Sequence record: MT446412.1
DNA: 64,000 bases
Reading direction: 5' to 3' (one strand)
Source: Escherichia virus TH41
Shown: in pieces, positions 2,458 through 50,573 of the stretch
How the letters are laid out: each line of letters begins with the position of its first letter
How positions within the stretch are numbered: the stretch's first letter is position 1
The notes under the pieces: generated by a model
The model's input: only the letters and a program-made list of their open reading frames with translations
The model's database searches: none
What the model was told of the DNA's origin: nothing
Position numbers and translations under genes: made by a program

Positions 2458-4271
2458 CAATTGAAAACGAAATTGAAGGATTGATTCATAAAACTAATAA
2501 AGACCTTTTAAACGAGAATGCTAATAAAGATTCTCGTGTTTTTCCAACTCAACGGGACCTTATGGCTGGTATTGTATCTAAACACATTGCCAAAAATATG
2601 GTCGCGTCTTTTATTATGAAAGCACATGAAAGCGGAATTATTCATTTCCATGATATTGATTATTCCCCTGCTCTTCCATTTACTAATTGCTGTTTAGTAG
2701 ATTTAAAAGGAATGCTTGAGAACGGGTTTAAGCTCGGTAATGCACAGATTGAAACTCCTAAATCAATCAGTGTTGCTACTGCAATTATGGCACAAATTAC
2801 TGCGCAGGTTGCTTCCCATCAATATGGCGGAACGACTTTTGCGAATGTAGATAAAGTACTTTCTCCTTATGTTAAACGTACCTATGCGAAACATATTGAG
2901 GACGCGGAAAAATGGCAAATCACTGATGCGTTGAATTATGCTCAATCTAAAACAGAAAAAGACGTATATGATGCATTCCAAGCTTATGAATATGAAGTAA
3001 ATACTCTCTTTAGTTCAAATGGTCAGACTCCTTTTGTGACAATTACATTTGGTACTGGAACTGACTGGACTGAACGAATGATTCAGAAAGCAATTCTGAA
3101 AAATCGTATTAAAGGTCTTGGTCGTGATGGGATAACTCCTATTTTCCCTAAACTTGTTATGTTTGTTGAAGAAGGTGTTAATCTTTATAAAGACGACCCG
3201 AACTATGATATTAAGCAGCTTGCTTTAGAGTGTGCAAGCAAAAGAATGTATCCTGATATCATTTCAGCTAAGAATAACAAAGCTATCACTGGTTCATTTA
3301 TTCCTGTTTCTCCAATGGGTTGCCGTAGTTTCTTGGGCGTATGGAAAGATTCGACTGGTAATGAAATTCTTGATGGACGTAATAATCTTGGTGTTGTAAC
3401 ACTGAATCTTCCTCGCATTGCATTAGATTCTTATATTGGAACACAGTTCAATGAACAGAAATTTACTGAATTGTTCAATGAGCGAATGGATTTATGTTTT
3501 GAAGCTTTGATGTGTAGAATTAGTTCCTTAAAAGGAGTTAAAGCGACTGTTGCTCCTATTCTTTATCAAGAAGGTGCATTCGGGGTTCGTCTTAAACCTG
3601 ATGACGATATAATTGAGTTATTTAAAAACGGTAGAAGTTCAGTATCCCTGGGATACATCGGTATTCACGAATTGAATATTCTTGTCGGTCGTGATATTGG
3701 GCAAGAAATTTTGACTAAAATGAATGCTCGTCTTAAGCAGTGGACTGAAAGAACCGGATTTGCTTTTAGCTTGTATTCTACACCTGCTGAAAACCTGTGT
3801 TATCGCTTCTGTAAACTCGATACCGAAAAATATGGAAGTGTAAAAGATGTTACTGATAAAGGCTGGTACACTAACAGTTTCCATGTTTCAGTAGAAGAAA
3901 ATATTACTCCGTTTGAAAAGATTTCTCGTGAAGCCCCATATCATTTCATTGCGACAGGCGGTCACATTTCTTATGTTGAACTTCCTGATATGAAAAATAA
4001 CTTAAAAGGTCTTGAGGCTGTATGGGATTATGCTGCACAGCATTTAGATTATTTTGGTGTTAATATGCCAGTGGATAAATGTTTTACATGTGGAAGTACC
4101 CATGAAATGACTCCTACTGAAAACGGATTTGTTTGTTCTATTTGTGGAGAAACTGACCCTAAAAAGATGAACACAATAAGAAGAACATGCGGCTATTTGG
4201 GAAATCCGAACGAACGCGGATTTAATCTCGGCAAAAATAAAGAAATCATGCATAGGGTTAAACACCAATGA
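2454..4271 (+). CDS. nrdD: Anaerobic ribonucleoside-triphosphate reductase NrdD (class III), uninterrupted
   Basis: 605 aa; C-terminal glycyl-radical motif RRTCGYLG and Cys cluster CFTCGS...CSICG. Confidence 0.95.
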   Translation: MTIENEIEGLIHKTNKDLLNENANKDSRVFPTQRDLMAGIVSKHIAKNMVASFIMKAHESGIIHFHDIDYSPALPFTNCCLVDLKGMLENGFKLGNAQIETPKSISVATAIMAQITAQVASHQYGGTTFANVDKVLSPYVKRTYAKHIEDAEKWQITDALNYAQSKTEKDVYDAFQAYEYEVNTLFSSNGQTPFVTITFGTGTDWTERMIQKAILKNRIKGLGRDGITPIFPKLVMFVEEGVNLYKDDPNYDIKQLALECASKRMYPDIISAKNNKAITGSFIPVSPMGCRSFLGVWKDSTGNEILDGRNNLGVVTLNLPRIALDSYIGTQFNEQKFTELFNERMDLCFEALMCRISSLKGVKATVAPILYQEGAFGVRLKPDDDIIELFKNGRSSVSLGYIGIHELNILVGRDIGQEILTKMNARLKQWTERTGFAFSLYSTPAENLCYRFCKLDTEKYGSVKDVTDKGWYTNSFHVSVEENITPFEKISREAPYHFIATGGHISYVELPDMKNNLKGLEAVWDYAAQHLDYFGVNMPVDKCFTCGSTHEMTPTENGFVCSICGETDPKKMNTIRRTCGYLGNPNERGFNLGKNKEIMHRVKHQ

Positions 4272-4738
4272 ATTATGATAGAATTTATCCTTGCGATTTT
4301 GTGAATGGCCCTGGTTGTAGGGTCGTTCTTTTCGTTACAGGTTGTTTGCATAAATGCGAAGGGTGTTATAATAAATCAACATGGAATGCTAGAAATGGTG
4401 TTCCATTCACTGGTGAAACACTAGAACAATTAATTGAATGTTTGAATAATGATTATATAGAAGGATTAACTATAACCGGAGGAGACCCTCTCTATCCTGA
4501 TAACCGAGATGTTATTCACTCTGTGGTTCAAACTATTAAAAATCTTTATCCCAATAAAAGCATTTGGATGTGGACAGGATATAAGTTTGAAGATATTAAA
4601 CAACTAGAAATGCTTAAATATGTTGATGTTATTATTGATGGGAAGTATGAGAAAAATCTTCCGACCAAAAAACTGTGGCGAGGGTCAGATAATCAGCGAC
4701 TTTGGTCAAATACCGATGGGGTGTGGAAACATGATTAA
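4268..4738 (+). CDS. nrdG: Anaerobic RNR activating protein NrdG (radical SAM)
   Basis: 156 aa; Cys cluster GCLHKCEGCYN; immediately downstream of nrdD with ATGA overlap. Confidence 0.9.
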   Translation: MNYDRIYPCDFVNGPGCRVVLFVTGCLHKCEGCYNKSTWNARNGVPFTGETLEQLIECLNNDYIEGLTITGGDPLYPDNRDVIHSVVQTIKNLYPNKSIWMWTGYKFEDIKQLEMLKYVDVIIDGKYEKNLPTKKLWRGSDNQRLWSNTDGVWKHD

Positions 4739-4852
4739 ATTGAATTACATTATGGGTACTATAAATGATATGATTTTTCATTTTGGTCCAGAATTTTATT
4801 CGCAGTATAGTTTAGTGCTTATCAATGCTTGGTTAATCAATTAAGGGTAAAT

Positions 4853-5068
4853 ATGGATAAATTTCGTAATGCTGCAGCAGATATTCTGGCAAACATAACG
4901 CTTGTGTTGTTCATCGTTTGCCTGCTTATTCTGGCTATTCCGTTTGGTTTGCTGTTTGTTATCATCGGTTGGTTAAGTACCAATCCTGGCCTCGAAAGCT
5001 CTGAATTCAACAAACGAATCCAGGCTATCCATAATACCATCGCAAAAATGATGAAGGTGAAAGAATGA
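4853..5068 (+). CDS. Hypothetical membrane protein (71 aa)
   Basis: ATG preceded by AAGGG; strongly hydrophobic core LVLFIVCLLILAIPFGLLFVIIGWL. Confidence 0.45.
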   Translation: MDKFRNAAADILANITLVLFIVCLLILAIPFGLLFVIIGWLSTNPGLESSEFNKRIQAIHNTIAKMMKVKE

Positions 5069-5364: not shown

Positions 5365-5662
5365 GATTGAAATCTATGGTATCCCCGAAGAAGTCGGTCG
5401 ATGCCCCGGTTGTATGCACGTCAGGAGCCTTCTGGGCTCCTTAAACCTTCCTTATACATTCTATTCAGTCCTTAACAAACAAGGCTCTGAAATCGCTTAT
5501 GACAGGCCTTTAATCGTGTCTTTGGCTAAGCGTGCTGGATATCCTACCCTTAACATTCGTTACCCAGTGATTTTTGTCAATGATGAAAAAATGACCAATA
5601 TTCCTGCCTTTAAAACAAAACTGATATCCCTGGGGTATGACCAGGACTTAATTGAAGATTAA
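5345..5662 (+). CDS. nrdH: Glutaredoxin-like protein (NrdH-like)
   Basis: KIEIYG...CPGC redox motif near N-terminus; GTG start after AAGGAG; position after nrdG as in T4. Confidence 0.55.
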   Translation: MDQKLTKIEIYGIPEEVGRCPGCMHVRSLLGSLNLPYTFYSVLNKQGSEIAYDRPLIVSLAKRAGYPTLNIRYPVIFVNDEKMTNIPAFKTKLISLGYDQDLIED

Positions 5663-5685
5663 AAAGGGGTGTACAAGCCCCTTTG
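5662..5685 (+). promoter_or_regulatory. Stem-loop AAAGGGG/CCCCTTT enclosing the -35 element of the next promoter
   Basis: Inverted repeat read directly; no T-run follows. Confidence 0.45.
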
Positions 5686-5698
5686 AATGATGTATCAT
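5669..5698 (+). promoter_or_regulatory. Early sigma70-type promoter (GTGTAC-N18-TATCAT), PeSL-like cassette
   Basis: Family consensus shared with at least 15 other sites; followed by conserved leader CCATCAACTACTGATGAGGA and ATG 5730. Confidence 0.6.
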
Positions 5699-5729
5699 TA
5701 TCCCATCAACTACTGATGAGGAGAACATT

Positions 5730-5906
5730 ATGACTATCCAAGATAAAGAAATTAAAGTCAACCAGTATTATTCAATCAACGGCAAAGCTGTTCTAGTAAC
5801 TGAAATATCTAGCCTGGATGTGTGGTATACCATAATTGACCTTAATATTAAAATGATTTGTGACCGTGGTGTATTTTGCTCGATAGCTAAGGAAATTAAA
5901 TTATGA
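5730..5906 (+). CDS. Hypothetical protein (58 aa)
   Basis: ATG 8 nt after GAGGAG in conserved leader; ATGA overlap with next ORF. Confidence 0.5.
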   Translation: MTIQDKEIKVNQYYSINGKAVLVTEISSLDVWYTIIDLNIKMICDRGVFCSIAKEIKL

Positions 5907-21456: not shown

Positions 21457-21790
21457 TATCGATTTATCTGATTTAGATAATTTCGAGAAAGATGCGGAGG
21501 GAGCTAAGGCTCCTTCTGTACCTTACTACGAAAAAAGTTTGGAGATTATCCGGCAATCCATGGGAACCGTACGACAGGAAATTCTGTTATCACTCCCTGA
21601 TGGGTCCAGTCACATTGTGTACGTAACCGGAATTAAAATTGAACCATCTGGAAAAGTTTCAGTTGATTTCGGCACCCCTTCTGAAGACCGCAAAGCGGAG
21701 CTTGCAGTGCATGTAGAAAAGTGTGTTACAATGCAAATACAAGATGAAATTGATAAGATTAAAATGAAAAAGAGGTGGTGGAAGTGGTAG
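21449..21790 (+). CDS. Hypothetical protein (113 aa), syntenic with T4 gene 40
   Basis: Between uvsX and gene 41; basic/hydrophobic C-terminus KKRWWKW; no sequence-level recognition. Confidence 0.4.
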   Translation: MNDIDLSDLDNFEKDAEGAKAPSVPYYEKSLEIIRQSMGTVRQEILLSLPDGSSHIVYVTGIKIEPSGKVSVDFGTPSEDRKAELAVHVEKCVTMQIQDEIDKIKMKKRWWKW

Positions 21791-23214
21791 AAACTATTTT
21801 ATCCCAGCTACTCTTTAACAAGGAATATTTTGTTAAAGTCTGGCCATATCTGAATAACACATATTTTGAAAAGGGTCCAGCAAAGACCCTTTTTAATACG
21901 ATTAACGAACACGTAAAAGAATATCAAGCGGTACCAACTAAGACTGCACTTGATATCGCGCTCGACAGTTCTGACCTTTCTGAAGTCGAATATGAAGGCA
22001 CAAAGAAACTCTTAGGAGTCCTGGCCGATACTCCAGAAGACCAGGAATGGTTGGTTAAAGAAACCGAGAAGTATGTACAGAAGTCTGCGATGTTCAATGC
22101 CACATCCAGGATTATCGAAATCCAGAGCAATGCCGAACTTCCGAAAGATAAACGTGATAAACGAATCCCGGATATTGGTGCTATCCCTGACATCATGCGC
22201 GATGCATTGTCTATCTGTTTTGACTCTGCTCTGGGCCATGACTGGTTAAACGATTACGAAGCTCGATTCCAGACTTATCTGAACAAATCGAAGAAGGTTC
22301 CGTTCCGTATTAACATCCTGAATAAAATCACGAAGGGCGGGGTTGAGTACGGTACAGAGAACGTTTTACTGGCCGGGACGAACGTCGGCAAATCCCTTGG
22401 ACTTTGTTCGCTGGCGGCTGACTATCTTCAGACTGGTCATAATGTGCTTTATATAAGCATGGAAATGGCTGAAGAAGTATGTGCCAAACGTATTGATGCC
22501 AACTTGCTGGATGTGTCTCTGGATGATATTGATGAAGGTCATGTGTCATGGGCGGAATACAAAAGTAAGATGGAAAAATGGCGTGCAGCCGGGACCCTTG
22601 GGACTCTGAAGATAAAACAATATCCAACTGGCGGTGCTCATGCGGATACCTTCCGTGCATTGCTGAATGAATACAAACTGAAGCAAGGGTTTGTGCCGGA
22701 TGTGATTATTGTTGACTACCTGGCAATCTGTGCAAGCTCAAGACTGAAAACGTTTACCGAAAACAGTTACGGCCTGATTAAGATGGTTGCAGAAGAACTT
22801 CGTGGTCTGGCGGTCGAGAAAAATGTGGTCCTGTGGACTGCAGCGCAGACAACCAGGGGTGCGAACGTTGCAGCTGAGATTGATATGGCTGACATCGCTG
22901 AATCTTTTGGTATTGCTCACACGGCCGACTTTATGTTGGGTGTTGTTGAGACCGAAGAATTCGCTCAAATGGGACTACAGTTAATCAAACAGCTTAAGTC
23001 TCGTTACGGCGATAAGAACTACTATAATAAATTCAAGATGGGTGTTAAGAAAGGTAATCAGCGCTGGTACGAGGTTGATGATGATTCAGCTCCTAAACAA
23101 GGCCCTACGGTTAAAGAAGCCACTGGTGAGATGAATCGCCAGGCTGAAATGAATAGACAAACCAGGGTCAACAGGAGCGACCTGGACGACCTTGCTGCTC
23201 AAATGAAATTCTAA
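21784..23214 (+). CDS. 41: Replicative DNA helicase gp41 (DnaB-like)
   Basis: GTG start giving MVETILSQLLF (T4: MVEIILSHLIF); Walker A GTNVGKSLG; near-identical blocks to T4 gp41. Confidence 0.93.
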   Translation: MVETILSQLLFNKEYFVKVWPYLNNTYFEKGPAKTLFNTINEHVKEYQAVPTKTALDIALDSSDLSEVEYEGTKKLLGVLADTPEDQEWLVKETEKYVQKSAMFNATSRIIEIQSNAELPKDKRDKRIPDIGAIPDIMRDALSICFDSALGHDWLNDYEARFQTYLNKSKKVPFRINILNKITKGGVEYGTENVLLAGTNVGKSLGLCSLAADYLQTGHNVLYISMEMAEEVCAKRIDANLLDVSLDDIDEGHVSWAEYKSKMEKWRAAGTLGTLKIKQYPTGGAHADTFRALLNEYKLKQGFVPDVIIVDYLAICASSRLKTFTENSYGLIKMVAEELRGLAVEKNVVLWTAAQTTRGANVAAEIDMADIAESFGIAHTADFMLGVVETEEFAQMGLQLIKQLKSRYGDKNYYNKFKMGVKKGNQRWYEVDDDSAPKQGPTVKEATGEMNRQAEMNRQTRVNRSDLDDLAAQMKF

Positions 23215-23233
23215 AGACCTTCGGGTCTTTTTC
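23213..23233 (+). terminator. Rho-independent terminator (AAGACC-TTCG-GGTCTT + T-run)
   Basis: UUCG hairpin followed by TTTTTC directly after gp41 stop. Confidence 0.7.
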
Positions 23234-23241
23234 ATTTAGAG

Positions 23242-23274
23242 GTTTACAACACCATAAAAAGGGTGTACTATTAT
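23242..23274 (+). promoter_or_regulatory. Degenerate early promoter (GTTTAC ... TATTAT) with conserved leader
   Basis: Spacer about 21 nt (long); followed by TATCCCATCAACTACTGATGAGGATAATAAA-ATG 23303. Confidence 0.35.
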
Positions 23275-23302
23275 CCCATCAACTACTGATGAGGATAATA
23301 AA

Positions 23303-23551
23303 ATGTTATTAGTTAATGTGCAGTACCAGTTCAAATCTGAAGAAGCTCTCCAAAAGTATGCTGATATTTGTGAGCATAATAAAAGAACAGCTGCCATTGT
23401 TGGTCTGAAGCCTTTTAAAATTTTGGATTGCTCCTTGAACAGAGCAAGACGCTGGTGTAGTGTTGCCTGTCATGCTTCAGTTGAAGGGAATGATTATTTT
23501 TTCATTACTTTCAATGCACAAGATTTTCATTTAATTAATGAATTAAAATAG
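23303..23551 (+). CDS. Hypothetical protein (82 aa)
   Basis: ATG after conserved leader with GAGGA. Confidence 0.55.
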   Translation: MLLVNVQYQFKSEEALQKYADICEHNKRTAAIVGLKPFKILDCSLNRARRWCSVACHASVEGNDYFFITFNAQDFHLINELK

Positions 23552-23580
23552 TGTACAAGCCCCTTGTCTTAGGACATAAT
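23551..23580 (+). promoter_or_regulatory. Early promoter GTGTAC-N18-CATAAT (PeSL-like)
   Basis: Followed by conserved GATTCCATACTGAGTTACAC block; ATG 23630. Confidence 0.6.
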
Positions 23581-23629
23581 GATTCCATACTGAGTTACAC
23601 AATAAACCAACTGTTAAAAGGAAAACCAT

Positions 23630-24000: not shown

Positions 24001-24318
24001 ATGAAAACCATTGATTGCAAGGCAGAATACAAAGTTTATTATCATGGGTCAAGTTCTAATGCTGGAATCCAAAATATGCTTTGTCCTCCTGATGCAACTG
24101 GTGTTCTGTCAGAAGTTGGGCGTAAGAAAAATTTAGGGCGTGTGTTTTTTACTGAAGATATTGGTTTGGCGCGTATCTATGCAGGAAGAGCAGCTCGCTC
24201 ATATGGAGGAGAACCCCGTCTTTATCGTGTGATTGCACCTGTTGACGTGGTTTGTTTAAATGATACTAAAGGCGCAACAGTTTATCACGCTGACTGGGCC
24301 TTCTGTGAGGAAATCTAA
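24001..24318 (+). CDS. Hypothetical protein (105 aa); possible minimal ADP-ribosyltransferase-like fold
   Basis: Motif order YHGS ... FFTED ... LYRVIAP recalls small H-Y-E class ARTs; unverified. Confidence 0.55.
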   Translation: MKTIDCKAEYKVYYHGSSSNAGIQNMLCPPDATGVLSEVGRKKNLGRVFFTEDIGLARIYAGRAARSYGGEPRLYRVIAPVDVVCLNDTKGATVYHADWAFCEEI

Positions 24319-24522
24319 ATGTATAAATTAGAGAACGTAGTATTTATTGGTTGGTTTGAAAATGGTAATATGTTTACCAAAGAAACCGCGCTGGATGTCA
24401 GTGACAAAAATATGATTGAATGGGTTACAGTGCAGTATGCGGAAGTGAATAATGCGCTGGTTAAAGCCTTTGTTAATGACAATAAAGTTTTTGAATATGA
24501 TGCCCGCATTGAGGAAATCTAA
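24319..24522 (+). CDS. Hypothetical protein (67 aa), paralog of next ORF
   Basis: Shares segment WVTVQYAEVNNALVKAFVND with 24523..24864 (WYVQKTADNYNALVEAFVDG). Confidence 0.5.
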   Translation: MYKLENVVFIGWFENGNMFTKETALDVSDKNMIEWVTVQYAEVNNALVKAFVNDNKVFEYDARIEEI

Positions 24523-24864
24523 ATGACTTTTAATCCAGAAGACCGCGTAAAAGTAACAATCAAAGTGAGTGCCGTTGGCGTTCCATCTTTTGAGCGCTCA
24601 AGTATGTTCCATCCCGCAGGTATTCACTGGTATGTTCAGAAGACTGCTGATAACTATAATGCGCTTGTTGAAGCTTTTGTTGATGGCGAGCTAATCCATA
24701 AAGTAGACATGCGTAAGGGCACTGCATTGCGTAATCTTATCTTGACCGTTGAAGCTCAACTGGTAAATGAAGAAATCTGCCTTACTGATATTGAAGCAGC
24801 TCTTCATATTGCACGTGCTGAATATTACAAATTGACTGGTTTTTCAGTTGAAGGTGAAAAATAA
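24523..24864 (+). CDS. Hypothetical protein (113 aa), paralog of previous ORF
   Basis: ORF track; shared N-terminal block with 24319..24522. Confidence 0.5.
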   Translation: MTFNPEDRVKVTIKVSAVGVPSFERSSMFHPAGIHWYVQKTADNYNALVEAFVDGELIHKVDMRKGTALRNLILTVEAQLVNEEICLTDIEAALHIARAEYYKLTGFSVEGEK

Positions 24865-24922: not shown

Positions 24923-25216
24923 ATGAAAAAGTTATTAATCGCAGCAATTCTTACCGTAGCATCATGTGGTACAGCCCCAGTTACTGCTGGGCTTGATAAA
25001 GACCTTTGTGAGTGGTCCATGACTGCGGACCAGACTGATGTTGAACACCAGATTTATGCTGACATCATGAACATTACTAAACGTGACCACCCAGATATGG
25101 TTAAAGAAGTATCTGACCAACTGGCTTCTGGTGACGTTATGCAGTATAACTATGTTCTGTATTGCGATGCTTCATTTGACAACAGCAAGATTGTTCAATG
25201 GGTTACAGGTGAATAA
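24923..25216 (+). CDS. Putative lipoprotein (97 aa)
   Basis: Signal peptide MKKLLIAAILTVASC with lipobox VASC. Confidence 0.55.
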   Translation: MKKLLIAAILTVASCGTAPVTAGLDKDLCEWSMTADQTDVEHQIYADIMNITKRDHPDMVKEVSDQLASGDVMQYNYVLYCDASFDNSKIVQWVTGE

Positions 25217-25217
25217 A

Positions 25218-25658
25218 ATGATTAACAGAAATTTAGTTATCAAAAAACTTCGTTGTAAAAATCAAAATGCACAAGCATACAGGATGTTTTGGAGCGACGA
25301 ACCCATTCAATACCTGGGTTATTTTCTTGTTGATAGTGATAATAGAATTACGTTTGCTCATAAACTTCTTAACAAAGAATTAAACCATTGGCAAGAACTT
25401 ATTGCGGTCAAGTCTAAATTATTTTCGCGCAATACAATGCACCAATTGGTTTATTTTTTCGCTGACGGTATTCCTGACAAGGTTGAGTTTGATGGGTTTG
25501 AATTTAAAGACATCACCCCTGATAATGAATTGAATGACAGTATTGTTAATATGGGTATCCCGGGTAAGTACATCAAAAACAGTCTTTTGAAACTTCTGGA
25601 AACCCCTGTATATTCAGTTGACGACCAGATTTTTAATGCCTTCATGAAGCGAGATTAG
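25218..25658 (+). CDS. Hypothetical protein (146 aa)
   Basis: ATG preceded by GGTGA; C-terminus DDQIFNAFMKRD shared with next ORF. Confidence 0.5.
   Translation: MINRNLVIKKLRCKNQNAQAYRMFWSDEPIQYLGYFLVDSDNRITFAHKLLNKELNHWQELIAVKSKLFSRNTMHQLVYFFADGIPDKVEFDGFEFKDITPDNELNDSIVNMGIPGKYIKNSLLKLLETPVYSVDDQIFNAFMKRD
25618..25653 (+). repeat. 36-bp direct repeat, copy 1 (TTGACGACCAGATTTTTAATGCCTTCATGAAGCGAG)
   Basis: 35/36 identical to 25979-26014; 3' end of gene 25218..25658. Confidence 0.85.
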
Positions 25659-25659
25659 T

Positions 25660-26019
25660 ATGAGTTATTATAATTTTCTGAATTTTGAACTGGCGAGCAA
25701 TAATGATGGTAATGCTCATTATGAATTTCGTGAGCCACGGTTTAATCAAGCGATTGGTTATATTATCGTCAAAGATGATGTTATCATAAAGGCTCGCTCA
25801 TTTATGGTAATGAATGGACCTTATGAAGATACTCGCGGCTATCCATTTGATAAAAAGAATGTGCGCGATTGTGCAGCATGGATAACCGGAAACCCCGAAA
25901 TTGGGGTCATGATATCTACTGAAGCGAATGACATTCTGGAAGGGGTTTGGGCCAAAGCTCAAGAATCGTCTATTGCTATTGACGACCAGATTTTTAATGC
26001 CTTCATGAAACGAGGTTAA
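25660..26019 (+). CDS. Hypothetical protein (119 aa) flanked by 36-bp direct repeats
   Basis: ORF track; C-terminus DDQIFNAFMKRG. Confidence 0.5.
   Translation: MSYYNFLNFELASNNDGNAHYEFREPRFNQAIGYIIVKDDVIIKARSFMVMNGPYEDTRGYPFDKKNVRDCAAWITGNPEIGVMISTEANDILEGVWAKAQESSIAIDDQIFNAFMKRG
25979..26014 (+). repeat. 36-bp direct repeat, copy 2
   Basis: 35/36 identical to 25618-25653. Confidence 0.85.
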
Positions 26020-26020
26020 T

Positions 26021-26242
26021 ATGTTTGTTTTAACTCAATTTTCTAAAGCAACATATAGCTACTCTTGTCAATGGGAAGTCTTCATTGATACACCGTCTCC
26101 CAAGTATGGAGTTTTCGGACGAGTAACTACACAAGCTTATGTTGCGCGACCAACCAAACGTCAGATTCGTAAGCTTAAAAAGGCGCATCGCCAACTGATT
26201 AAAAGAAGGGAACAATATGAGTGCAATGTGTACGGGCTCTAA
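26021..26242 (+). CDS. Hypothetical basic protein (73 aa)
   Basis: ORF track. Confidence 0.45.
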   Translation: MFVLTQFSKATYSYSCQWEVFIDTPSPKYGVFGRVTTQAYVARPTKRQIRKLKKAHRQLIKRREQYECNVYGL

Positions 26243-26408
26243 GATTTCCGTATTCGAGATTTTTGAAGAATATGAAATCGTGTCGCAAGACCAAGAAGCA
26301 ATCCATGTTATCGCTGATGATGGTGTTACCTGGATTATTCCGTTGTATCATGAAGACACTTATGAAGTGACTGATGCAAATGGTGATAAAGCTGTCTTCG
26401 TTGTATAA
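26217..26408 (+). CDS. Hypothetical protein (63 aa)
   Basis: ORF track. Confidence 0.45.
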   Translation: MSAMCTGSKISVFEIFEEYEIVSQDQEAIHVIADDGVTWIIPLYHEDTYEVTDANGDKAVFVV

Positions 26409-26427
26409 ATAGCGGAAAGGGGGTGTT

Positions 26428-26595
26428 ATGAAAACATTCAAAGATTTTATCAACGAAAATATGGTTGCCGGTGATGCAGGTGGAAATCCAACTAATATCG
26501 CAACAGGTACCACTTCCGGGGCAGTTGTCAATAAAGGCCCTGAACAAATCCCATCAAAAAAGCGTAAGAACAAAGACGATAAACCTACAGTATAA
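26428..26595 (+). CDS. Hypothetical protein (55 aa)
   Basis: ATG preceded by GGAAAGGGGG; under track cutoff. Confidence 0.4.
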   Translation: MKTFKDFINENMVAGDAGGNPTNIATGTTSGAVVNKGPEQIPSKKRKNKDDKPTV

Positions 26596-26627: not shown

Positions 26628-27656
26628 ATGTCATATATTGATAAAGAATTTGCGGTTAGAGCTTTATCGTATCAACCACGTTATAGAGAAGTCACCGGGA
26701 GCACATTTAAAGCAAACTGTCGTTGCAAGGTTTGTGGGGACTCCCAGAAAGATTCACACAAGGCTCGATTCTGGGCGTATACTAATCCGGCTGATGGCGC
26801 GGTTTACGTGAAATGTTTTAACTGTGACTACTCCACGCATATAAGCAAATACATAAAAGAGTTTGAGCCGGATTTACACTGGGAATATATGGTTGAGAAG
26901 TATAAGGAGAATGCCTTTGGCAGACAACGTAATGAAGTTGCCGAAACTCCGAAAGAACCAGAAAAAACTCCGGTTATCGAAGAGCTTGCTTTTTGTGAAA
27001 GACTCGATACTTTACCAGAAGCGCATCCTATAATTAAGTATGTAAAAAGTCGGTGTATTCCTAGCAATGTTTGGAACCGGTTATGGTTTACAAACAAATG
27101 GCCTGCATTAGTTAACTCCGTTAATCCTGGGACGTATAAGAATGAAACGAATGAACCACGCTTGGTTATTCCTATCTTCAACGGCAAAAAAGAAATCGAA
27201 TCTTTCCAAGGACGAGCTCTTCGCAAAGATGCACCACAAAAATATATCACAATCAAAGCTCACCCAGAAGCTTCCAAAGTCTATGGTGTAGACAAGATTG
27301 ATGAGCGCAAGCGCGTGTGGGTAATGGAAGGTCCGATTGATAGTTTGTTTATCCCTAACAGCATTGCGATAACTGGTGGAACATTGTCATTGGAAGCCGT
27401 TCCTTATCCAGAAACCAGAGTATGGGTAATGGACAACGAACCAAGACATCCGGATACGATTAAACGTATGAAGAAGCTCGTTGAAGCTGGCGAAGCTGTT
27501 ATGTTCTGGGACAATGCACCATGGCATACGAAAGACATAAATGAGATGGTTAAATCAGAAGGAGCAACCCCTGAACAAATCGAATCATATATGGCTGATA
27601 ACGTTGCCCAAGGATTGATGGCGAGAATGCGACTTTCGAAGTACGCAAAAGTTTAG
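26628..27656 (+). CDS. 61: DNA primase gp61
   Basis: 342 aa (same as T4 gp61); N-terminal zinc ribbon CRCKVCGD...CFNCDY. Confidence 0.9.
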   Translation: MSYIDKEFAVRALSYQPRYREVTGSTFKANCRCKVCGDSQKDSHKARFWAYTNPADGAVYVKCFNCDYSTHISKYIKEFEPDLHWEYMVEKYKENAFGRQRNEVAETPKEPEKTPVIEELAFCERLDTLPEAHPIIKYVKSRCIPSNVWNRLWFTNKWPALVNSVNPGTYKNETNEPRLVIPIFNGKKEIESFQGRALRKDAPQKYITIKAHPEASKVYGVDKIDERKRVWVMEGPIDSLFIPNSIAITGGTLSLEAVPYPETRVWVMDNEPRHPDTIKRMKKLVEAGEAVMFWDNAPWHTKDINEMVKSEGATPEQIESYMADNVAQGLMARMRLSKYAKV

Positions 27657-31121: not shown

Positions 31122-31682
31122 ATGAACATCATCAAATCTGATACCGAACCCAACCAGTTAAAATTTAATGAAATGGAGATAGCTTCATTATTTGAATGCC
31201 GCGCATCAAAGGTTGATAAGACCTTACATTCAAACATCAACTCAATCATCAAGTCAAGGTTGTCTATACCTGATACAGTCTTGTATCGTGGGGTAACCCA
31301 GCAAGAGATTGATTTGTTAGATGAAGCAAAAGAATCAATGCAACCTTTTGAATTTGGAAGGATAACCTCCTTTACAGAAGACTATGGTATTGCCAGGGAT
31401 TTTGCTGCAATGGAATATGTGTCAAGGACTATCATCAGATTGAATCATACAAAAGCTTTTTGTTATCATGATGCGATGCGCAAAATCGCGCTTGACGTTC
31501 CACTGGAATTCTTCAATACAGCCTCTGGTTCCGAACAGGCAGCAACGTTAAGGCGTGAAGAATACATGGACATGATTGATTCTGAGCTTGAATGGTTTGT
31601 TCCAGTTGACCAGAAATTCGTGATAGTTGATGCTGGATTTGTTGATGATTATTATGTTCTTGACTGTGTACAAGAGCAATAA
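31122..31682 (+). CDS. modA: ADP-ribosyltransferase, ModA-like
   Basis: 186 aa; R-S-E triad candidates LYRG, ITSFTED, ELEWFVP; adjacent paralog; syntenic with T4 modA/modB. Confidence 0.6.
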   Translation: MNIIKSDTEPNQLKFNEMEIASLFECRASKVDKTLHSNINSIIKSRLSIPDTVLYRGVTQQEIDLLDEAKESMQPFEFGRITSFTEDYGIARDFAAMEYVSRTIIRLNHTKAFCYHDAMRKIALDVPLEFFNTASGSEQAATLRREEYMDMIDSELEWFVPVDQKFVIVDAGFVDDYYVLDCVQEQ

Positions 31683-31695
31683 GACACGTTAAGAT
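31666..31695 (+). promoter_or_regulatory. Early promoter GTGTAC-N18-TAAGAT inside 3' end of modA-like gene
   Basis: Followed by leader TCCTATCAACTACTGATGAGGATAATAAA and ATG 31727. Confidence 0.5.
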
Positions 31696-31726
31696 GTTCC
31701 TATCAACTACTGATGAGGATAATAAA

Positions 31727-32341
31727 ATGCTGTACACTGATGACGTTTTGAATGGAATTATTGACATTGCCGCTTCTAGTGAGTCTTTTCGTAACCAATG
31801 TCAAGCGGAGATTGATGCTCTTTATACAGATAATGAACAATCAGTACTCTGGCAGTGTATGGAAAATAAACCCGACCTGATTCAAGAAGACTTAACCAGG
31901 ATTATCCGCAACAATCTGAATACTGCACCACCTGCGGCATTGTTCCGTGGTATATCAAAGAAAACTATGGAATACCTGGAAGATTTCAGATATGTTGGTG
32001 CAACGATTGAGTTCAATCGTGTGATGAGTTTTTCCAGGGACTGGCAGGTTGCAAGAAATTTCGCATCATACAGTTTCTATGGCACAAGGAATATTTTCTG
32101 CATAAACAATGCACCATATGCGTATAACTATCAGGAAGCAATCTTTAAAATGATTTGTGGCGCTCCTCCTGAAGAGTTCAATGGTGCATATCCAGAAGCA
32201 ACCAGGAAGTCAAACTTACACCTGGTTAATGATGAGGATGAGTTTATGTTTCCCGCTGGGACTACGCTTCGCGTAGACTTGATTGAGACACACCCATTGA
32301 ATAACCTTTATACTGTTTGGCATTTGACTGTTTTGAACTAA
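31727..32341 (+). CDS. modB: ADP-ribosyltransferase, ModB-like
   Basis: 204 aa; LFRG, MSFSRD, EDEFMFP motifs; ATG follows conserved leader (track start 31694 is upstream). Confidence 0.6.
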   Translation: MLYTDDVLNGIIDIAASSESFRNQCQAEIDALYTDNEQSVLWQCMENKPDLIQEDLTRIIRNNLNTAPPAALFRGISKKTMEYLEDFRYVGATIEFNRVMSFSRDWQVARNFASYSFYGTRNIFCINNAPYAYNYQEAIFKMICGAPPEEFNGAYPEATRKSNLHLVNDEDEFMFPAGTTLRVDLIETHPLNNLYTVWHLTVLN

Positions 32342-33524: not shown

Positions 33525-34849
33525 TTAAATTTGAAGACTTGAACACAGGACAAAAAGAAGCTTTTGATTATATCACTGAAGCTATTCAGCGACGTTCAGG
33601 GGAATGTATCACTCTGAATGGTCCAGCTGGTACAGGTAAGACCACTCTGACAAAATTTGTCATTGACCATCTAGTGCGTAATGGAGTTATGGGAATTGTG
33701 CTTGCTGCGCCAACTCACCAGGCGAAAAAAGTTTTATCTAAATTGTCTGGTCAAACCGCGAATACAATCCATAGTATCCTGAAGATTAACCCGACCACAT
33801 ATGAAGACCAAAACGTTTTTGAACAACGCGAAATGCCTGACATGTCAAAATGCAATGTTCTGGTTTGTGATGAAGCAAGTATGTATGACGGGTCTCTGTT
33901 TAAGATTATTCTTAACTCTGTTCCTGAATGGTGTACTATTCTTGGGATTGGTGATATGCACCAGCTGCAGCCAGTTGACCCAGGAAGCACACAACAAAAG
34001 ATAAGCCCATTCTTTACGCATCCTAAGTTCAAACAGATTCATCTGACTGAGGTCATGCGAAGCAATGCTCCTATCATTGAAGTGGCGACAGAAATTCGTA
34101 ATGGTGGTTGGTTCCGTGACTGTATGTATGATGGTCATGGTGTACAGGGTTTCACCTCACAAACCGCTTTAAAGGATTTCATGATAAACTATTTCAGTAT
34201 TGTAAAAGATGCTGATATGTTGATGGAAAACAGGATGTATGCGTACACGAATAAATCAGTTGAAAAACTGAACAATATTATTCGTCGCAAGCTCTATGAA
34301 ACGGATAAAGCATTTTTACCGTATGAAGTCCTGGTTATGCAAGAGCCACACATGAAAGAGCTGGAATTTGAAGGCAAGAAATTCAGCGAAACCATTTTTA
34401 ATAATGGTCAGTTGGTTCGCATCAAGGATTGCAAATACACTTCCACCATTCTCCGTTGTAAAGGCGAATCGCACCAGTTAGTGATTAATTACTGGGACCT
34501 GGAAGTTGAGTCAATTGATGAAGATGAAGAATATCAGGTTGACCGCATTAAAGTTTTACCAGAAGACCAGCAACCAAAATTCCAGGCATATCTGGCTAAA
34601 GTTGCTGACACATACAAACAGATGAAAGCCGCTGGTAAACGTCCGGAGTGGAAAGACTTCTGGAAAGCTCGCCGGACCTTCTTGAAAGTTCGTGCTCTTC
34701 CGGTCAGTACAATTCACAAGGCCCAGGGCGTTTCAGTGGACAAAGCATTCATCTATACTCCATGCATCCATATGGCCGAAGCTTCATTAGCGAGCCAGTT
34801 GGCTTATGTAGGAATCACACGAGCGAGGTACGACGCATATTATGTATAA
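33521..34849 (+). CDS. dda: DNA helicase Dda (SF1)
   Basis: 442 aa; Walker A GPAGTGKTT, blocks AAPTHQAKK, LKINP, FHKAQG, YVGITRAR match T4 Dda. Confidence 0.93.
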   Translation: MIKFEDLNTGQKEAFDYITEAIQRRSGECITLNGPAGTGKTTLTKFVIDHLVRNGVMGIVLAAPTHQAKKVLSKLSGQTANTIHSILKINPTTYEDQNVFEQREMPDMSKCNVLVCDEASMYDGSLFKIILNSVPEWCTILGIGDMHQLQPVDPGSTQQKISPFFTHPKFKQIHLTEVMRSNAPIIEVATEIRNGGWFRDCMYDGHGVQGFTSQTALKDFMINYFSIVKDADMLMENRMYAYTNKSVEKLNNIIRRKLYETDKAFLPYEVLVMQEPHMKELEFEGKKFSETIFNNGQLVRIKDCKYTSTILRCKGESHQLVINYWDLEVESIDEDEEYQVDRIKVLPEDQQPKFQAYLAKVADTYKQMKAAGKRPEWKDFWKARRTFLKVRALPVSTIHKAQGVSVDKAFIYTPCIHMAEASLASQLAYVGITRARYDAYYV

Positions 34850-35087
34850 AGTACATAAAGAAGATTTAGATACTCTTATCTATGGTATTCAGGACGCGGT
34901 TGAATTTTTCGAAGATAATCCGACTATCGTCGTGCAGGGTAATTACGTTTTACTGGAACTGAATCTTATTCGGAAACGTATGGCCGCGATTGAATATTTT
35001 AACAATGAAGAGCCAGGGATTTTTATCTCCGACTATGTTGCTGGTGAAATTCAGAAATTAAAAGAGATGTGCGATGGTTGCTGGTGA
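34842..35087 (+). CDS. Hypothetical protein (81 aa); 3' end lies in 40-bp tandem duplication
   Basis: ORF track. Confidence 0.45.
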   Translation: MYKVHKEDLDTLIYGIQDAVEFFEDNPTIVVQGNYVLLELNLIRKRMAAIEYFNNEEPGIFISDYVAGEIQKLKEMCDGCW

Positions 35088-35116
35088 AATTCAAAAATTA
35101 AAAGAGATGTGCGATG
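35037..35116 (+). repeat. Tandem duplication, 2 x 40 bp (one mismatch) spanning the dexA start
   Basis: Units 35037-35076 and 35077-35116; unit 2 ends with the dexA ATG. Confidence 0.9.
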
Positions 35117-35797
35117 ATTGATGCTATTATTGACTTTGAAACTCTGGGAAACGGCTCGAAGGGAGCCGTTATTGACCTGGCTCTGATTACATTCGAATCT
35201 GACCCTGCTATTGTGGAATCATTCGAAACCCTGGTTAATCGCGGCAAACGTATCAAGTTTAGCCTTGAATACCAAAAAGGTAAGCGTCTGTTCGATACAA
35301 CAACCATGAGTTGGTGGAAAAAGCAATCAGCAGAAGCCCGTGTTAACTTGGCTCCTTCTGCGCAAGATGTTGATACTCTGACCGGTATCCAACAGGCAAT
35401 TGATTATCTGAATGGTAATGGAATTAACAAATACGAAAGCCTTATGTGGTGTCGTGGAATGTCTTTTGACTTCCCGTTGTTTGTTGACCTTATCCGTGAC
35501 CTACAGCGCAATGAGGGTATTCCCGAGCGTGAATTGAATACATATGGCCTGGAGCCGGTTGTATTCTGGAACCAGCGAGATATCAGGACAGCAATCGAAG
35601 CCCTATCACTCGTCCGTAAGATGTGTGAAACTCCATTACCAAAGGGGGCTTTAGATGGATTTGTGGCGCATGATTCGGTGCATGACTGCGCGAAAGATAT
35701 TTTGATGCTTAAGTATGCCCAGCGCTATGCTCTTGGTTTGGATGAAGTTCCTTCCGAAGAAGATGCAGACCCGTTATCTTTACCGAAAAAACGATAA
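35114..35797 (+). CDS. dexA: Exonuclease A (DexA, DEDD 3'-5' exonuclease)
   Basis: 227 aa (same as T4 DexA); N-terminal IDFETLG motif. Confidence 0.85.
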   Translation: MIDAIIDFETLGNGSKGAVIDLALITFESDPAIVESFETLVNRGKRIKFSLEYQKGKRLFDTTTMSWWKKQSAEARVNLAPSAQDVDTLTGIQQAIDYLNGNGINKYESLMWCRGMSFDFPLFVDLIRDLQRNEGIPERELNTYGLEPVVFWNQRDIRTAIEALSLVRKMCETPLPKGALDGFVAHDSVHDCAKDILMLKYAQRYALGLDEVPSEEDADPLSLPKKR

Positions 35798-35803
35798 AAA
35801 GTA

Positions 35804-35833
35804 GTGTACAAGGCCAATGGAAAGAGACATAAT
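35804..35833 (+). promoter_or_regulatory. Early promoter GTGTAC-N18-CATAAT
   Basis: Preceded by AAAAAGTA; leader CATCTCATCAACTACTGATGAGGATAACAAA; ATG 35865. Confidence 0.6.
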
Positions 35834-35864
35834 CATCTCATCAACTACTGATGAGGATAACAAA

Positions 35865-36122
35865 ATGATTACTTCTTTTGAAATTGGCCAACAATATGAA
35901 ATGTCTGCTTTTCAAGCTGCTGAAGCAGGTCTGACTGAAGCGTTTGAATGTGCATTTACAAATATTCGTGGTAAAATCTTTACTGTCAATAAAATTGCGG
36001 TATATGATAAAGAAACAGACATGAACAAAGGCATCTACTTGAACGTGTCAAACGCAAAAGGCCGTCGTGAAATTATGGTTGTACAACCTAACCAACTGGC
36101 GATGTTCAATAAGGTTACATAA
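35865..36122 (+). CDS. Hypothetical protein (85 aa)
   Basis: ATG after conserved leader; in frame with track ORF 35817..36122. Confidence 0.5.
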   Translation: MITSFEIGQQYEMSAFQAAEAGLTEAFECAFTNIRGKIFTVNKIAVYDKETDMNKGIYLNVSNAKGRREIMVVQPNQLAMFNKVT

Positions 36123-36877: not shown

Positions 36878-36881
36878 ATTT

Positions 36882-36911
36882 GTGTACAAACTCGTGGGGC
36901 CAGAGTATAAT
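36882..36911 (+). promoter_or_regulatory. Early promoter GTGTAC-N18-TATAAT with -10 inside inverted repeat GTGGGGCC/GGTCCCAC
   Basis: Read directly; ATG 36954. Confidence 0.6.
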
Positions 36912-36953
36912 GGTCCCACTGGAGAATAAACTTATTAATCAAGAGAGAAAATT

Positions 36954-46270: not shown

Positions 46271-46280
46271 TTAAAAAGTA

Positions 46281-46310
46281 GTGTACATCAGTATGGAGTC
46301 TATGTATAAT
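46281..46310 (+). promoter_or_regulatory. Early promoter GTGTAC-N18-TATAAT
   Basis: Preceded by AAAAAGTA; followed by GATTCCATACTGAGTTACC; ATG 46345. Confidence 0.6.
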
Positions 46311-46344
46311 GATTCCATACTGAGTTACCAAACTGGAGAATAAA

Positions 46345-47256: not shown

Positions 47257-47498
47257 AACTTTTTAAAGACATTGCAGTTGGTGAAAAATTTGTCCTGGGT
47301 AATGGTCAACAACTGATTCGCATTTCGCCTTTAATGGATAACAGTGAGCGCCCTGTGCGTACTGAAAACTGTTTGGATTATCCTTTTTATCAGAAACGTT
47401 TTGCAATTGAAAATAATACTGAGTGCTTCACAGTTGATGAACTGATGGAATCATCAGAAGAAGTTGACTTGTGGGATGGCGCGGTAGATGTAGAATAG
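47253..47498 (+). CDS. Hypothetical protein (81 aa)
   Basis: ORF track; ATGA overlap. Confidence 0.5.
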   Translation: MKLFKDIAVGEKFVLGNGQQLIRISPLMDNSERPVRTENCLDYPFYQKRFAIENNTECFTVDELMESSEEVDLWDGAVDVE

Positions 47499-47527
47499 TG
47501 TACAAACTCATGGGAGCAGAGTATAAT
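47498..47527 (+). promoter_or_regulatory. Early promoter GTGTAC-N18-TATAAT with -10 flanked by imperfect inverted repeat
   Basis: Near-identical to cassettes at 36882 and 47910; ATG 47566. Confidence 0.6.
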
Positions 47528-47565
47528 GTTCCCGTGGATAATAAAATTTAATTGAGGAAAATATT

Positions 47566-47910
47566 ATGTCTAAAGTATTTTTTGGTAATCGCAACATTAT
47601 GTTCTTTAAACAGATTAGCATATCAGAAGCATTTGATTTAAGTTATTCAGGTGGTACAAAAGCTGTTAACCTTAAAAATTTGATGTCTGCAGAATTTGCA
47701 TTCTATCAGGACCCTGAAACTGGTTTCTATAAATTTATTAAGTTCCGCATGACTATGGACCGCGATTATCGCGATGTTTATTATACAAGTTATGAAAGTG
47801 TTGTGAATGCAATTCGTGAAGCTTATGGGTTGGATTCGTTGTCTCTTGACCGTCTGTATAATGCAAGCCTTTACACCAGTGGATTTATTTTAGAACAACT
47901 ACAAAAATAG
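47566..47910 (+). CDS. Hypothetical protein (114 aa)
   Basis: ATG preceded by GAGGAAAATATT. Confidence 0.55.
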   Translation: MSKVFFGNRNIMFFKQISISEAFDLSYSGGTKAVNLKNLMSAEFAFYQDPETGFYKFIKFRMTMDRDYRDVYYTSYESVVNAIREAYGLDSLSLDRLYNASLYTSGFILEQLQK

Positions 47911-47939
47911 TGTACAAACTCTTGGGGTCAGAGTATAAT
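47910..47939 (+). promoter_or_regulatory. Early promoter GTGTAC-N18-TATAAT with -10 inside perfect 8-bp inverted repeat TGGGGTCA/TGACCCCA
   Basis: Read directly; ATG 47984. Confidence 0.6.
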
Positions 47940-47983
47940 GACCCCACTGGAGCACAAAACTTTAACTTACTGAGGAAATTAAT

Positions 47984-50480: not shown

Positions 50481-50494
50481 ATTTTAAAAAAGTA

Positions 50495-50524
50495 GTGTAC
50501 AAGTCCCTTGACCTGATGCATAAT
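50495..50524 (+). promoter_or_regulatory. Early promoter GTGTAC-N18-CATAAT
   Basis: Preceded by AAAAAAGTA; followed by GATTCCATACTGAGTTACAC; ATG 50574. Confidence 0.6.
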
Positions 50525-50573
50525 GATTCCATACTGAGTTACACAATGAATCACAAAAACTTTGGAGAATAAA

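Follow-up and report, generated by a model that had tools for sequence, protein, structure and literature searches.

The 64,000-nucleotide window analysed here (the whole stretch of sequence record MT446412.1 under study) comes from Escherichia virus TH41 and is that of a Gaprivervirus-type relative of T4. We focus on two consecutive plus-strand open reading frames (ORFs), called genes A and B, and on the direct repeat formed by their 3′ ends. Reading from the left, the window holds a uvsX-sized ORF, a helicase-sized ORF (479 aa, 21775-23214, at the gene 41 position of annotated relatives), a set of small genes that includes dmd and a dmd-like paralogue, and then the series sp-A-B-C-D-61.1-61 (Table 1). 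Over 1.8 kb around the repeat the sequence is 97.8% identical to phage UPEC01 and 96% identical to VR20. The region was named the anti-toxin–antitoxin (anti-TA) island by Srikant et al. (2022; PMC9391042), and contains dmd (anti-RnlA), tifA (anti-ToxN) and adfA/61.2 (anti-DarT) (PMC9391042). Genes A and B occupy the position of AdfA, directly downstream of sp and upstream of 61.1/61. Quite probably, they are deeply diverged tandem members of the AdfA family, and the repeat is a selected C-terminal tail that doubles as a homology arm.

The repeat, TTGACGACCAGATTTTTAATGCCTTCATGAA(G/A)CGAG, lies at 25618-25653 and 25979-26014 with 35 of 36 positions identical, as seen both by direct reading of the sequence and by repeat search. 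These are the coordinates and identity given in an earlier note made from the sequence alone, which also had the copies as the 3′ ends of two consecutive ORFs with a common DDQIFNAFM tail; all of this is borne out, gene A ending in VDDQIFNAFMKRD and gene B in IDDQIFNAFMKRG, each followed by a stop codon. The match continues in register, 25618-25662 against 25979-26023 (42/45 identical), and the extension takes in the final codon, the stop, a single spacer base and the ATG that follows. The repeat is thus 36–45 bp long and consists of an invariant tail, DDQIFNAFM(K/N)R(G/D), plus a stop/Shine-Dalgarno/start junction; in the second copy this junction, GAGGTTAATATG, combines a Shine-Dalgarno sequence with the stop of B and the start codon of C. 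The two copies start 361 nt apart. A degenerate back-translation of DDQIFNAFM finds these two sites and no others in the 64-kb window, with 0.00 expected from 100 shuffles, and the repeat is the sole coding-sequence repeat of its kind there, the other families being early-promoter/5′ untranslated region (5′UTR) cassettes.

The tail peptide leads directly to a known inhibitor. AdfA (anti-DarT factor A; T4 gp61.2; PF23813) is a small protein that binds the DarT1 toxin and so blocks it (PMC11257639 and PMC9391042, citing LeRoux et al. 2022), and its C-terminus is what the repeat encodes. T4 gp61.2 ends in ...SIDDQIFNAFMNRG (...VNVSIDDQIFNAFMNRG) and a stop, followed by TAATATG of gene 61.1, and the published primers for RB69 adfA encode the identical C-terminal end (PMC11257639). 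Residues 101-119 of B align to positions 193-211 of the 211-position Pfam AdfA model. The motif with its stop terminates the A-type proteins of Dhakaviruses and Gapriverviruses, the B-type proteins of Gapriverviruses and of T2-like Tequatroviruses (the latter 45-50% identical to window B), the full-length AdfA of T4-like and RB69-like phages, and several metagenomic variants (P0035, P0049, P0051), and it is identical in the T4, RB69-like, T2-type and metagenomic members. A tail profile run against 1.84 billion representative proteins returned 10 matches, nine of them tail carriers and one (P0055) a chance match; the tail is therefore a narrow family feature and no general motif, and a widespread short linear motif is ruled out. 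No earlier account of a tail linking A-type proteins, B-type proteins and AdfA was found in the AdfA/DarTG papers searched and read.

The tail is a selected motif. Among the first 26 sequences screened, with two mismatches permitted, 33 of 33 tail copies carry exactly DDQIFNAFM, and the loci fetched later, with at most one mismatch permitted, also hold the exact form only. When 23 distinct tail DNAs are compared, six of the nine core codons differ among them, always synonymously (GAC/GAT twice, CAG/CAA, ATT/ATA, GCC/GCT/GCA, TTC/TTT). Since just 13.6% of the possible single-base changes in the tail are synonymous, selection must act on the peptide. In AlphaFold2 (AF2) models, the tail is a low-confidence terminal helix that is not packed on the body; these models suggest that it is probably an exposed amphipathic helix, with an I-F-x-x-F-M face, whose function would be common to the family.

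Outside the tail, BLASTP of A against B and scans with Pfam and PHROG show no similarity. Because these direct searches saw the tail alone, the tails were cut off and the bodies compared profile to profile (hhalign, single-comparison E-values) and by fold. B aligns with AdfA at 8.3e-5 over 86 columns (probability 61%), with the C-terminal half of AdfA at 2.2e-5 (probability 76%) and with its N-terminal half at 3e-4; A aligns with B at 0.0065 over 95 collinear columns and with AdfA at 0.012-0.017. A β-hairpin motif, G-[YF]-h-h-V-[KD]-[DN]-x-x-I, falls in the same register in all of these alignments, at residues ~31-45 of A and B, and, judged by eye, a hairpin of the type G-[YF]-h-h-V-x-[DN]-x-x-I is found in every tail-bearing cluster sequence retrieved in full. 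At the level of Pfam (PF23813, threshold 27 bits), T4 gp61.2 scores 450 bits and the T2-type B protein P0044, which is 45% identical to window B, scores 32.4 bits over profile positions 112-211.

The AF2 models of A and B have the same order of elements, namely four to five strands, then one helix, then a further strand. In A (mean predicted local distance difference test score, pLDDT, 70), residues 1-100 form β1-β5, α1 and β6 and are followed by a disordered linker and the low-confidence terminal helix (tail below 50); in B (pLDDT 83), a C-terminal helix follows the common elements. In a Foldseek search of BFVD, the B model matches the gene A protein of VR25 (E 7.9e-4, template modelling score 0.57) and, at rank 4, a 212-aa protein of AdfA-like length; furthermore, the A and B models both match the same 157-aa Yersinia phage protein. 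By manual count on the tail-less alignment, the AdfA specificity position 164 falls where helix α1 of B aligns. Searches of the PDB by sequence and by fold gave no significant match, so that the fold gives no functional clue, and a sequence search found no solved structure of AdfA there.

That A, B and AdfA form one superfamily, in which AdfA looks like two B-like modules, is likely; as judged from the profiles, the body homology to AdfA appears fairly good for B and less settled for A. The earlier note had called the two ORFs otherwise unrelated, a description that is probably wrong, since the tail-less bodies show remote similarity over their whole length by profile and by fold. It had also named ordinary homology of the whole proteins as the observation that would count against its reading. 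Such homology is present in part, as remote similarity of the bodies, and is very uneven: the bodies are ~20% identical in the structural alignment versus 100% for the tail.

Given a conserved peptide, identical DNA could in principle result from codon bias. Both window tails, on the other hand, use minority codons (GAC 35%, twice; GCC 14%; CGA 10%), and codon usage alone would give identical core codons with a probability of ~6e-4, which rules this out as the cause of the identity. The rare codons common to the two tails indicate a recent exchange of DNA between them. A different synonymous set (GAT GAC CAA ... GCT TTT ... AGA) is found in Tequatrovirus tails, and the AdfA and B tails within one Tequatrovirus genome share that set, differing at the last codon only. 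In the Dhakaviruses 005 and IME341, a linked Tequatrovirus-type set (GAT..CAA..GCT TTT) replaces the usual Dhakavirus set in the A tail, which hints that tail DNA may also have been exchanged between genera.

Gene B is a cassette that is variably present among relatives. Homologues of gene A were found in 85 phage records, all of Dhakavirus/Gaprivervirus-type coliphages and close relatives, and 33 of these 85 also have B, with 52 lacking it. Those of gene B comprise 33 close homologues and 299 of T2 type at 45-50% identity, the latter missed by a word-indexed search with B alone and recovered with an alignment query; the INPHARED phage collection was far more informative than a pattern scan of IMG/VR, which gave 16 loci only. 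The earlier note had predicted that recombination between the copies would delete exactly 25660..26019, and had proposed a comparison of relatives. In VR26, VR5 and most Dhakaviruses, including JS98 and E33, which have A only, it is exactly gene B that is absent, with one tail kept. VR26 clusters with the B-carrying Gapriverviruses in five of five neighbour-joining trees (sp, A body, C, D+61.1 and gene 61), and the absence of B there is thus most simply a loss, although the trees rest on short mosaic segments and the direction of events on parsimony only. The same comparison yielded a gain: UGJNEcP3 has a Dhakavirus backbone and gene B. The imported patch has its left breakpoint 20-35 nt upstream of tail 1 and its right one within tail 2. 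This second tail is a hybrid that joins the B body to a Dhakavirus-type 3′ half (GCCTTTATGAATCGAGGTTGATATG). Breakpoints at or beside the tails are thus directly observed. The window itself is recombinant as well: up to position 25896, all 178 discriminating sites are UPEC01-like, and the sequence is VR7-like from 25946 to ~26308.

The T-even phages display a further version of the same polymorphism. The slot that follows sp reads sp-61.2-61.1-61 in T4, sp-B-61.1 in T2 and sp-AdfA-B-61.1 in slur08. T4 differs from slur08 by a clean 358-nt gap that comprises the B body and one tail, with flanks mostly 92-100% identical per 50-nt window, and a crossover at any point of ~40 identical nt would account for the T4 junction. 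T2, on the other hand, is slur08 minus AdfA. Between sp and the B-type gene of T2 (2432-2446 of its locus) lies AGAGGTTAGTATG, which resembles a remnant of a tail end plus junction and suggests that AdfA was lost in T2 from an ancestor with AdfA and B. T2 has been treated as lacking adfA (PMC11257639); its slot is not empty, as a half-size AdfA paralogue is present. Neither the T2 B-type gene as a relative of AdfA nor the three-state polymorphism was found described in the AdfA/DarTG papers searched and read.

In a census of Tequatrovirus junctions, ~152 records have AdfA and B, ~167 have AdfA only, as T4 does, and ~141 have B only, as T2 does, counted under an 80% coverage rule and including duplicate RefSeq/GenBank and laboratory-strain records. 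Over ~460 sequenced T-even genome records, presence and absence thus form a roughly three-way polymorphism. The tail DNA was located at 755 places, spread over 558 records, and genomes hold one or two tail-bounded genes (A+B, AdfA+B, A, B or AdfA). Of the 14 two-tail genomes examined, 13 have D (GAT) at the end of the upstream tail and G (GGT) at that of the downstream one, so that the junction of tail-D plus B seems to travel as a unit. Two public assemblies are reiterated at this locus: Yersinia phage phiD1 (HE956711) has four tails at 3000-3960 of its locus and phage 04086 a triplicated 3′ half of A at 4001-4858 of its locus, both with runs of N or X. The cause may be misassembly at the repeat, or real heterogeneity or amplification in the population, and both assemblies were set aside and not used as evidence.

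We propose that the tail came to serve as a homology arm in the following way. First, purifying selection holds the tail peptide while the bodies diverge almost past recognition. Second, tails encoded by the same DNA would act as homology arms for the recombination system of the phage, presumably of UvsX type, which would pair non-allelic tails within one genome or between co-infecting genomes. Third, unequal or allelic exchange between tails would delete, insert or swap a whole gene in frame, and would keep co-resident tails nearly identical. As the 361-nt unit spans the same point from tail to tail, every product retains its reading frames and start junctions. Recombination in T4 drops steeply below ~50 bp of homology; with 36–45 bp, tail events should thus be rare but real. 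The direction of the individual events is something that we infer.

Several observations weigh against this explanation. First of all, the VR26 tail has the tail-1 allele at all four positions where the VR7 tails differ from each other, which places the crossover in the last 8 nt (TTAATATG) or calls for later mismatch repair; the VR26 event thus looks more like microhomology than like recombination inside the 36 bp. Second, gene C has been gained and lost where the junctions share no more than 6 nt (AATATG), so that long repeats are not needed for indels in this region. Third, the census counts include the duplicate and laboratory-strain records. Fourth, the statistics for homology between A and B are marginal, in hhalign as well as in the confidence of the A model and its tail. 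The Foldseek match is one-way, the top 50 of the A model being without the B family, and shared tail residues raise its score. Finally, window B stays under the Pfam AdfA threshold, with 23 versus 27 bits that come from the tail only (193-211), and A has no Pfam AdfA match.

The best surviving alternative, which we nevertheless consider improbable, is that A and B are unrelated and that the repeat is the functionless footprint of a foreign cassette whose insertion copied the resident 3′ end. This is what BLASTP and searches of sequences with hidden Markov models would suggest, as they see the tail only, and it would fit both the rare codons of the co-resident tails, as if one had been copied from the other, and the existence of precise single-copy relatives. 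The same tail, on the other hand, ends AdfA in T4 and RB69 and the B gene of T2, where a single gene occupies the slot; this marks the tail as a family feature and no insertion footprint. The exclusively synonymous variation, the collinear alignment and common fold order of the tail-less bodies and the recurrent hairpin motif also argue against it. The claim of the earlier note that the repeat is a signature of cassette gain and loss thus stands as far as recombination does add and remove B, and fails as far as the repeat was taken as a mere mark of insertion, the tail being invariant across the AdfA/gp61.2 family.

A second alternative takes the tail as a general cassette adaptor, comparable to integron attC or to a coding version of the early-promoter stem-loop (PeSL) elements, that is, as a dedicated exchange device for anti-defence genes, by which any gene between tails could be cut out as a circle and taken up at a tail of another genome. 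The varied combinations of one or two tail-bounded genes per genome, the hybrid tails, the two assemblies with reiterated copies and ambiguous bases and the precedent of PeSL mini-circles in T4-type phages are in its favour. Nevertheless, the tail is carried by one protein superfamily only, the neighbouring variable genes C, D and 61.1 are without it, neither circles nor products of excision were seen here, and the reiterated assemblies may be artefacts; we see very little room for this reading.

A third proposal, for which we see marginally less room still, is that the repeat is kept as a nucleic-acid element, for translational coupling and ribosome binding, as a promoter or as an RNA structure, with the peptide incidental. 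Its last ~12 nt are indeed a Shine-Dalgarno sequence, a stop and the next start, any following gene (B, C, D or 61.1) starts exactly at the junction, and a weak sigma-70/promoter-like match lies at 25587-25614. Such matches are, on the other hand, only ~2x as frequent as in shuffles, and neither repeat copy has a terminator-like site, so that a promoter or terminator is rejected as the main explanation. RNA structure is ruled out as the reason for the repeat, since the four tail regions folded against shuffles give z = +1.12, -0.06, -0.62 and -0.22, with no stable fold. More importantly, third codon positions vary freely between genera and amino acids never do, and an obvious nucleic-acid role is limited to the final dozen bases, which are all that the proposal accounts for. 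Chance or faulty assembly is practically negligible as an explanation of the repeat, as zero matches are expected in shuffles and 33 independent phage records show two copies arranged in the same way.

The reading that we prefer, a selected family tail that doubles as a homology arm, could be carried one step further. The tail might be a dual-purpose module, which combines a common peptide function with a dedicated site for in-frame exchange between co-infecting T-even genomes; phages might then stack, drop and trade toxin-specific inhibitor bodies, possibly via excised B-tail circles like the PeSL mini-circles. A coding repeat would then underlie a cassette system for counter-defence genes. 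We regard this extension as doubtful.

How do A and B compare with known systems? They resemble AdfA in their slot after sp, in an identical C-terminal tail and in the same β-hairpin motif; furthermore, tail-less B aligns to the C-terminal half of AdfA and T2-type B passes the Pfam threshold. They differ in that window B has 119 aa versus 208 in AdfA and stays under that threshold, that A, with 146 aa, has a long disordered linker and no Pfam match, and that the window holds two members in tandem. Anti-DarT activity is known for AdfA and is a prediction for A and B, which may be toxin inhibitors of the same kind with different specificities.

The comparison with modular shuffling mediated by PeSLs in T4-type phages (Arbiol et al. 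2010, PMC2839356; Comeau et al. 2014, PMC4122927) is close in terms of outcome. In both cases, dispensable genes in hyperplastic regions lie between short conserved repeats, which bound indels between close relatives and yield insertions, deletions and replacements by recombination. PeSLs, on the other hand, are intergenic and combine a strong sigma-70-type early promoter with a stem-loop terminator, neither of which the tails have; the tail is coding, lacks a stem-loop, is selected as a peptide and flanks one protein family. By analogy, the tail may be said to work like a PeSL in effect. In the same anti-TA island, short-homology recombination in T4 amplified dmd-tifA (Srikant et al. 2022, PMC9391042), and there too direct repeats drive the amplification or deletion of anti-toxin genes. 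Those were laboratory events with homologies of 2-10 bp anywhere, whereas the tails are a selected coding motif of 36–45 bp and the tail events are natural polymorphisms fixed in hundreds of genomes.

A more distant analogy is with polymorphic toxins such as CdiA-CT after the VENN motif, in which a constant motif borders a variable domain. Here as well, a short invariant motif would edge a fast-diversifying domain and supply homology for its swapping. The arrangement is reversed, in that the variable part is N-terminal and the constant part C-terminal; a silent store of cassettes is not known, and the genes are candidates for counter-defence rather than toxins.

Three seemingly unrelated proteins, A, B and AdfA, thus appear to be one family, with an invariant 13-residue C-terminus and fast-evolving bodies, and membership in one family with AdfA predicts that A-type and B-type genes also encode toxin inhibitors. 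The tail could be a site for a common partner, an oligomerisation element or a stability element. The locus documents a case in which selection creates a recombination site, the peptide being held and DNA identity being the result. Recombination at short repeats in the hyperplastic regions of T4-type phages is well known, and our results therefore refine established knowledge and overturn nothing.

The neighbouring genes frame the slot. Sp is the conserved left flank of this variable AdfA-family slot, and gene D together with 61.1 (26217..26595) the conserved right flank. The start of gene A is most likely the ATG at 25218, the mechanical ORF list giving 25083. Gene C, directly after the tail, is a second gene with independent presence and absence, and in P8 and MN01, which lack it, the B tail adjoins gene D.

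Table 1. Positions of the features discussed, numbered along the 64-kb window
Feature	Coordinates	Strand	Basis or remarks
sp (spackle)	24923..25216	+	Pfam T4_Spackle E 2.5e-43; annotated sp in VR7, VR26, SP18, T4, T2
gene A, 146 aa, phrog_8539	25218..25658	+	PHROG E 3.5e-91; ends in tail copy 1
tail copy 1	25618..25662	+	encodes VDDQIFNAFMKRD and stop, then junction TAGTATG containing the B start codon
gene B, 119 aa, phrog_4122, half-size AdfA-like	25660..26019	+	PHROG E 4.5e-53
mosaic breakpoint inside gene B	25897..25945	+	UPEC01-like left, VR7-like right
tail copy 2	25979..26023	+	encodes IDDQIFNAFMKRG and stop, then junction GAGGTTAATATG
gene C (DUF7279, '61.4-like')	26021..26242	+	Pfam DUF7279 E 2.7e-20; no tail
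gene D (RB69 ORF033c-like)	26217-26408	+	PHROG match; annotations in relatives
gene 61.1	26428-26595	+	PHROG match; annotations in relatives
gene 61 (DNA primase), right anchor	26628..27656	+	ORF list; annotated gp61 in VR7, VR26, SP18, JS98
PeSL-like intergenic repeats	5660-5736, 23233-23309, 23545-23609, 31666-31729, 35795-35871, 36878-36917		
PeSL-like intergenic repeats, continued	46275-46339, 47494-47533, 47906-47945, 50489-50553 and others		

Within sp, positions 25041-25085 look weakly like a tail (VEHQIYADIMNITKRD versus VDDQIFNAFMKRD, 62% nucleotide identity), and the RB69 version of this segment, known from a published primer sequence, is EQQIFSDIMNITKRD. A third tail copy inside sp was considered and is taken as probable chance, since no spackle protein came up when the tail profile was searched. 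The intergenic repeat families of the window, 35-77 nt long (GTGTACAA...TATAAT...CATCAACTACTGATGAGGATAATAAAATG), resemble T4-type early promoter plus 5′UTR cassettes and are thus PeSL-like.

Short direct repeats recur elsewhere in the same island. An exact 16-nt repeat, TGAGGAAATCTAAATG, at 24306-24321 and 24510-24525 brackets dmd (24319-24522), and dmd and its upstream gene both end in ...EEI and a stop, followed by ATG. In the gene after dmd (24523-24864), residues 30-65 match the Dmd PHROG; both proteins have YNALVEAFV, and their genes are 87% identical over 30 nt. Dmd and the following gene look like another diverged pair of tandem paralogues in this anti-toxin island.

Outside the island, a 40-nt tandem duplication (39/40 identical) at 35037-35116 lies between an 81-aa ORF (34842-35087) and dexA (35114-35797) and alters the end of the 81-aa protein to ...DGCW. 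This duplication is polymorphic, being present in TH22, MN01 and UPEC07, with exactly 40 nt absent from P8, P896 and phage 212.

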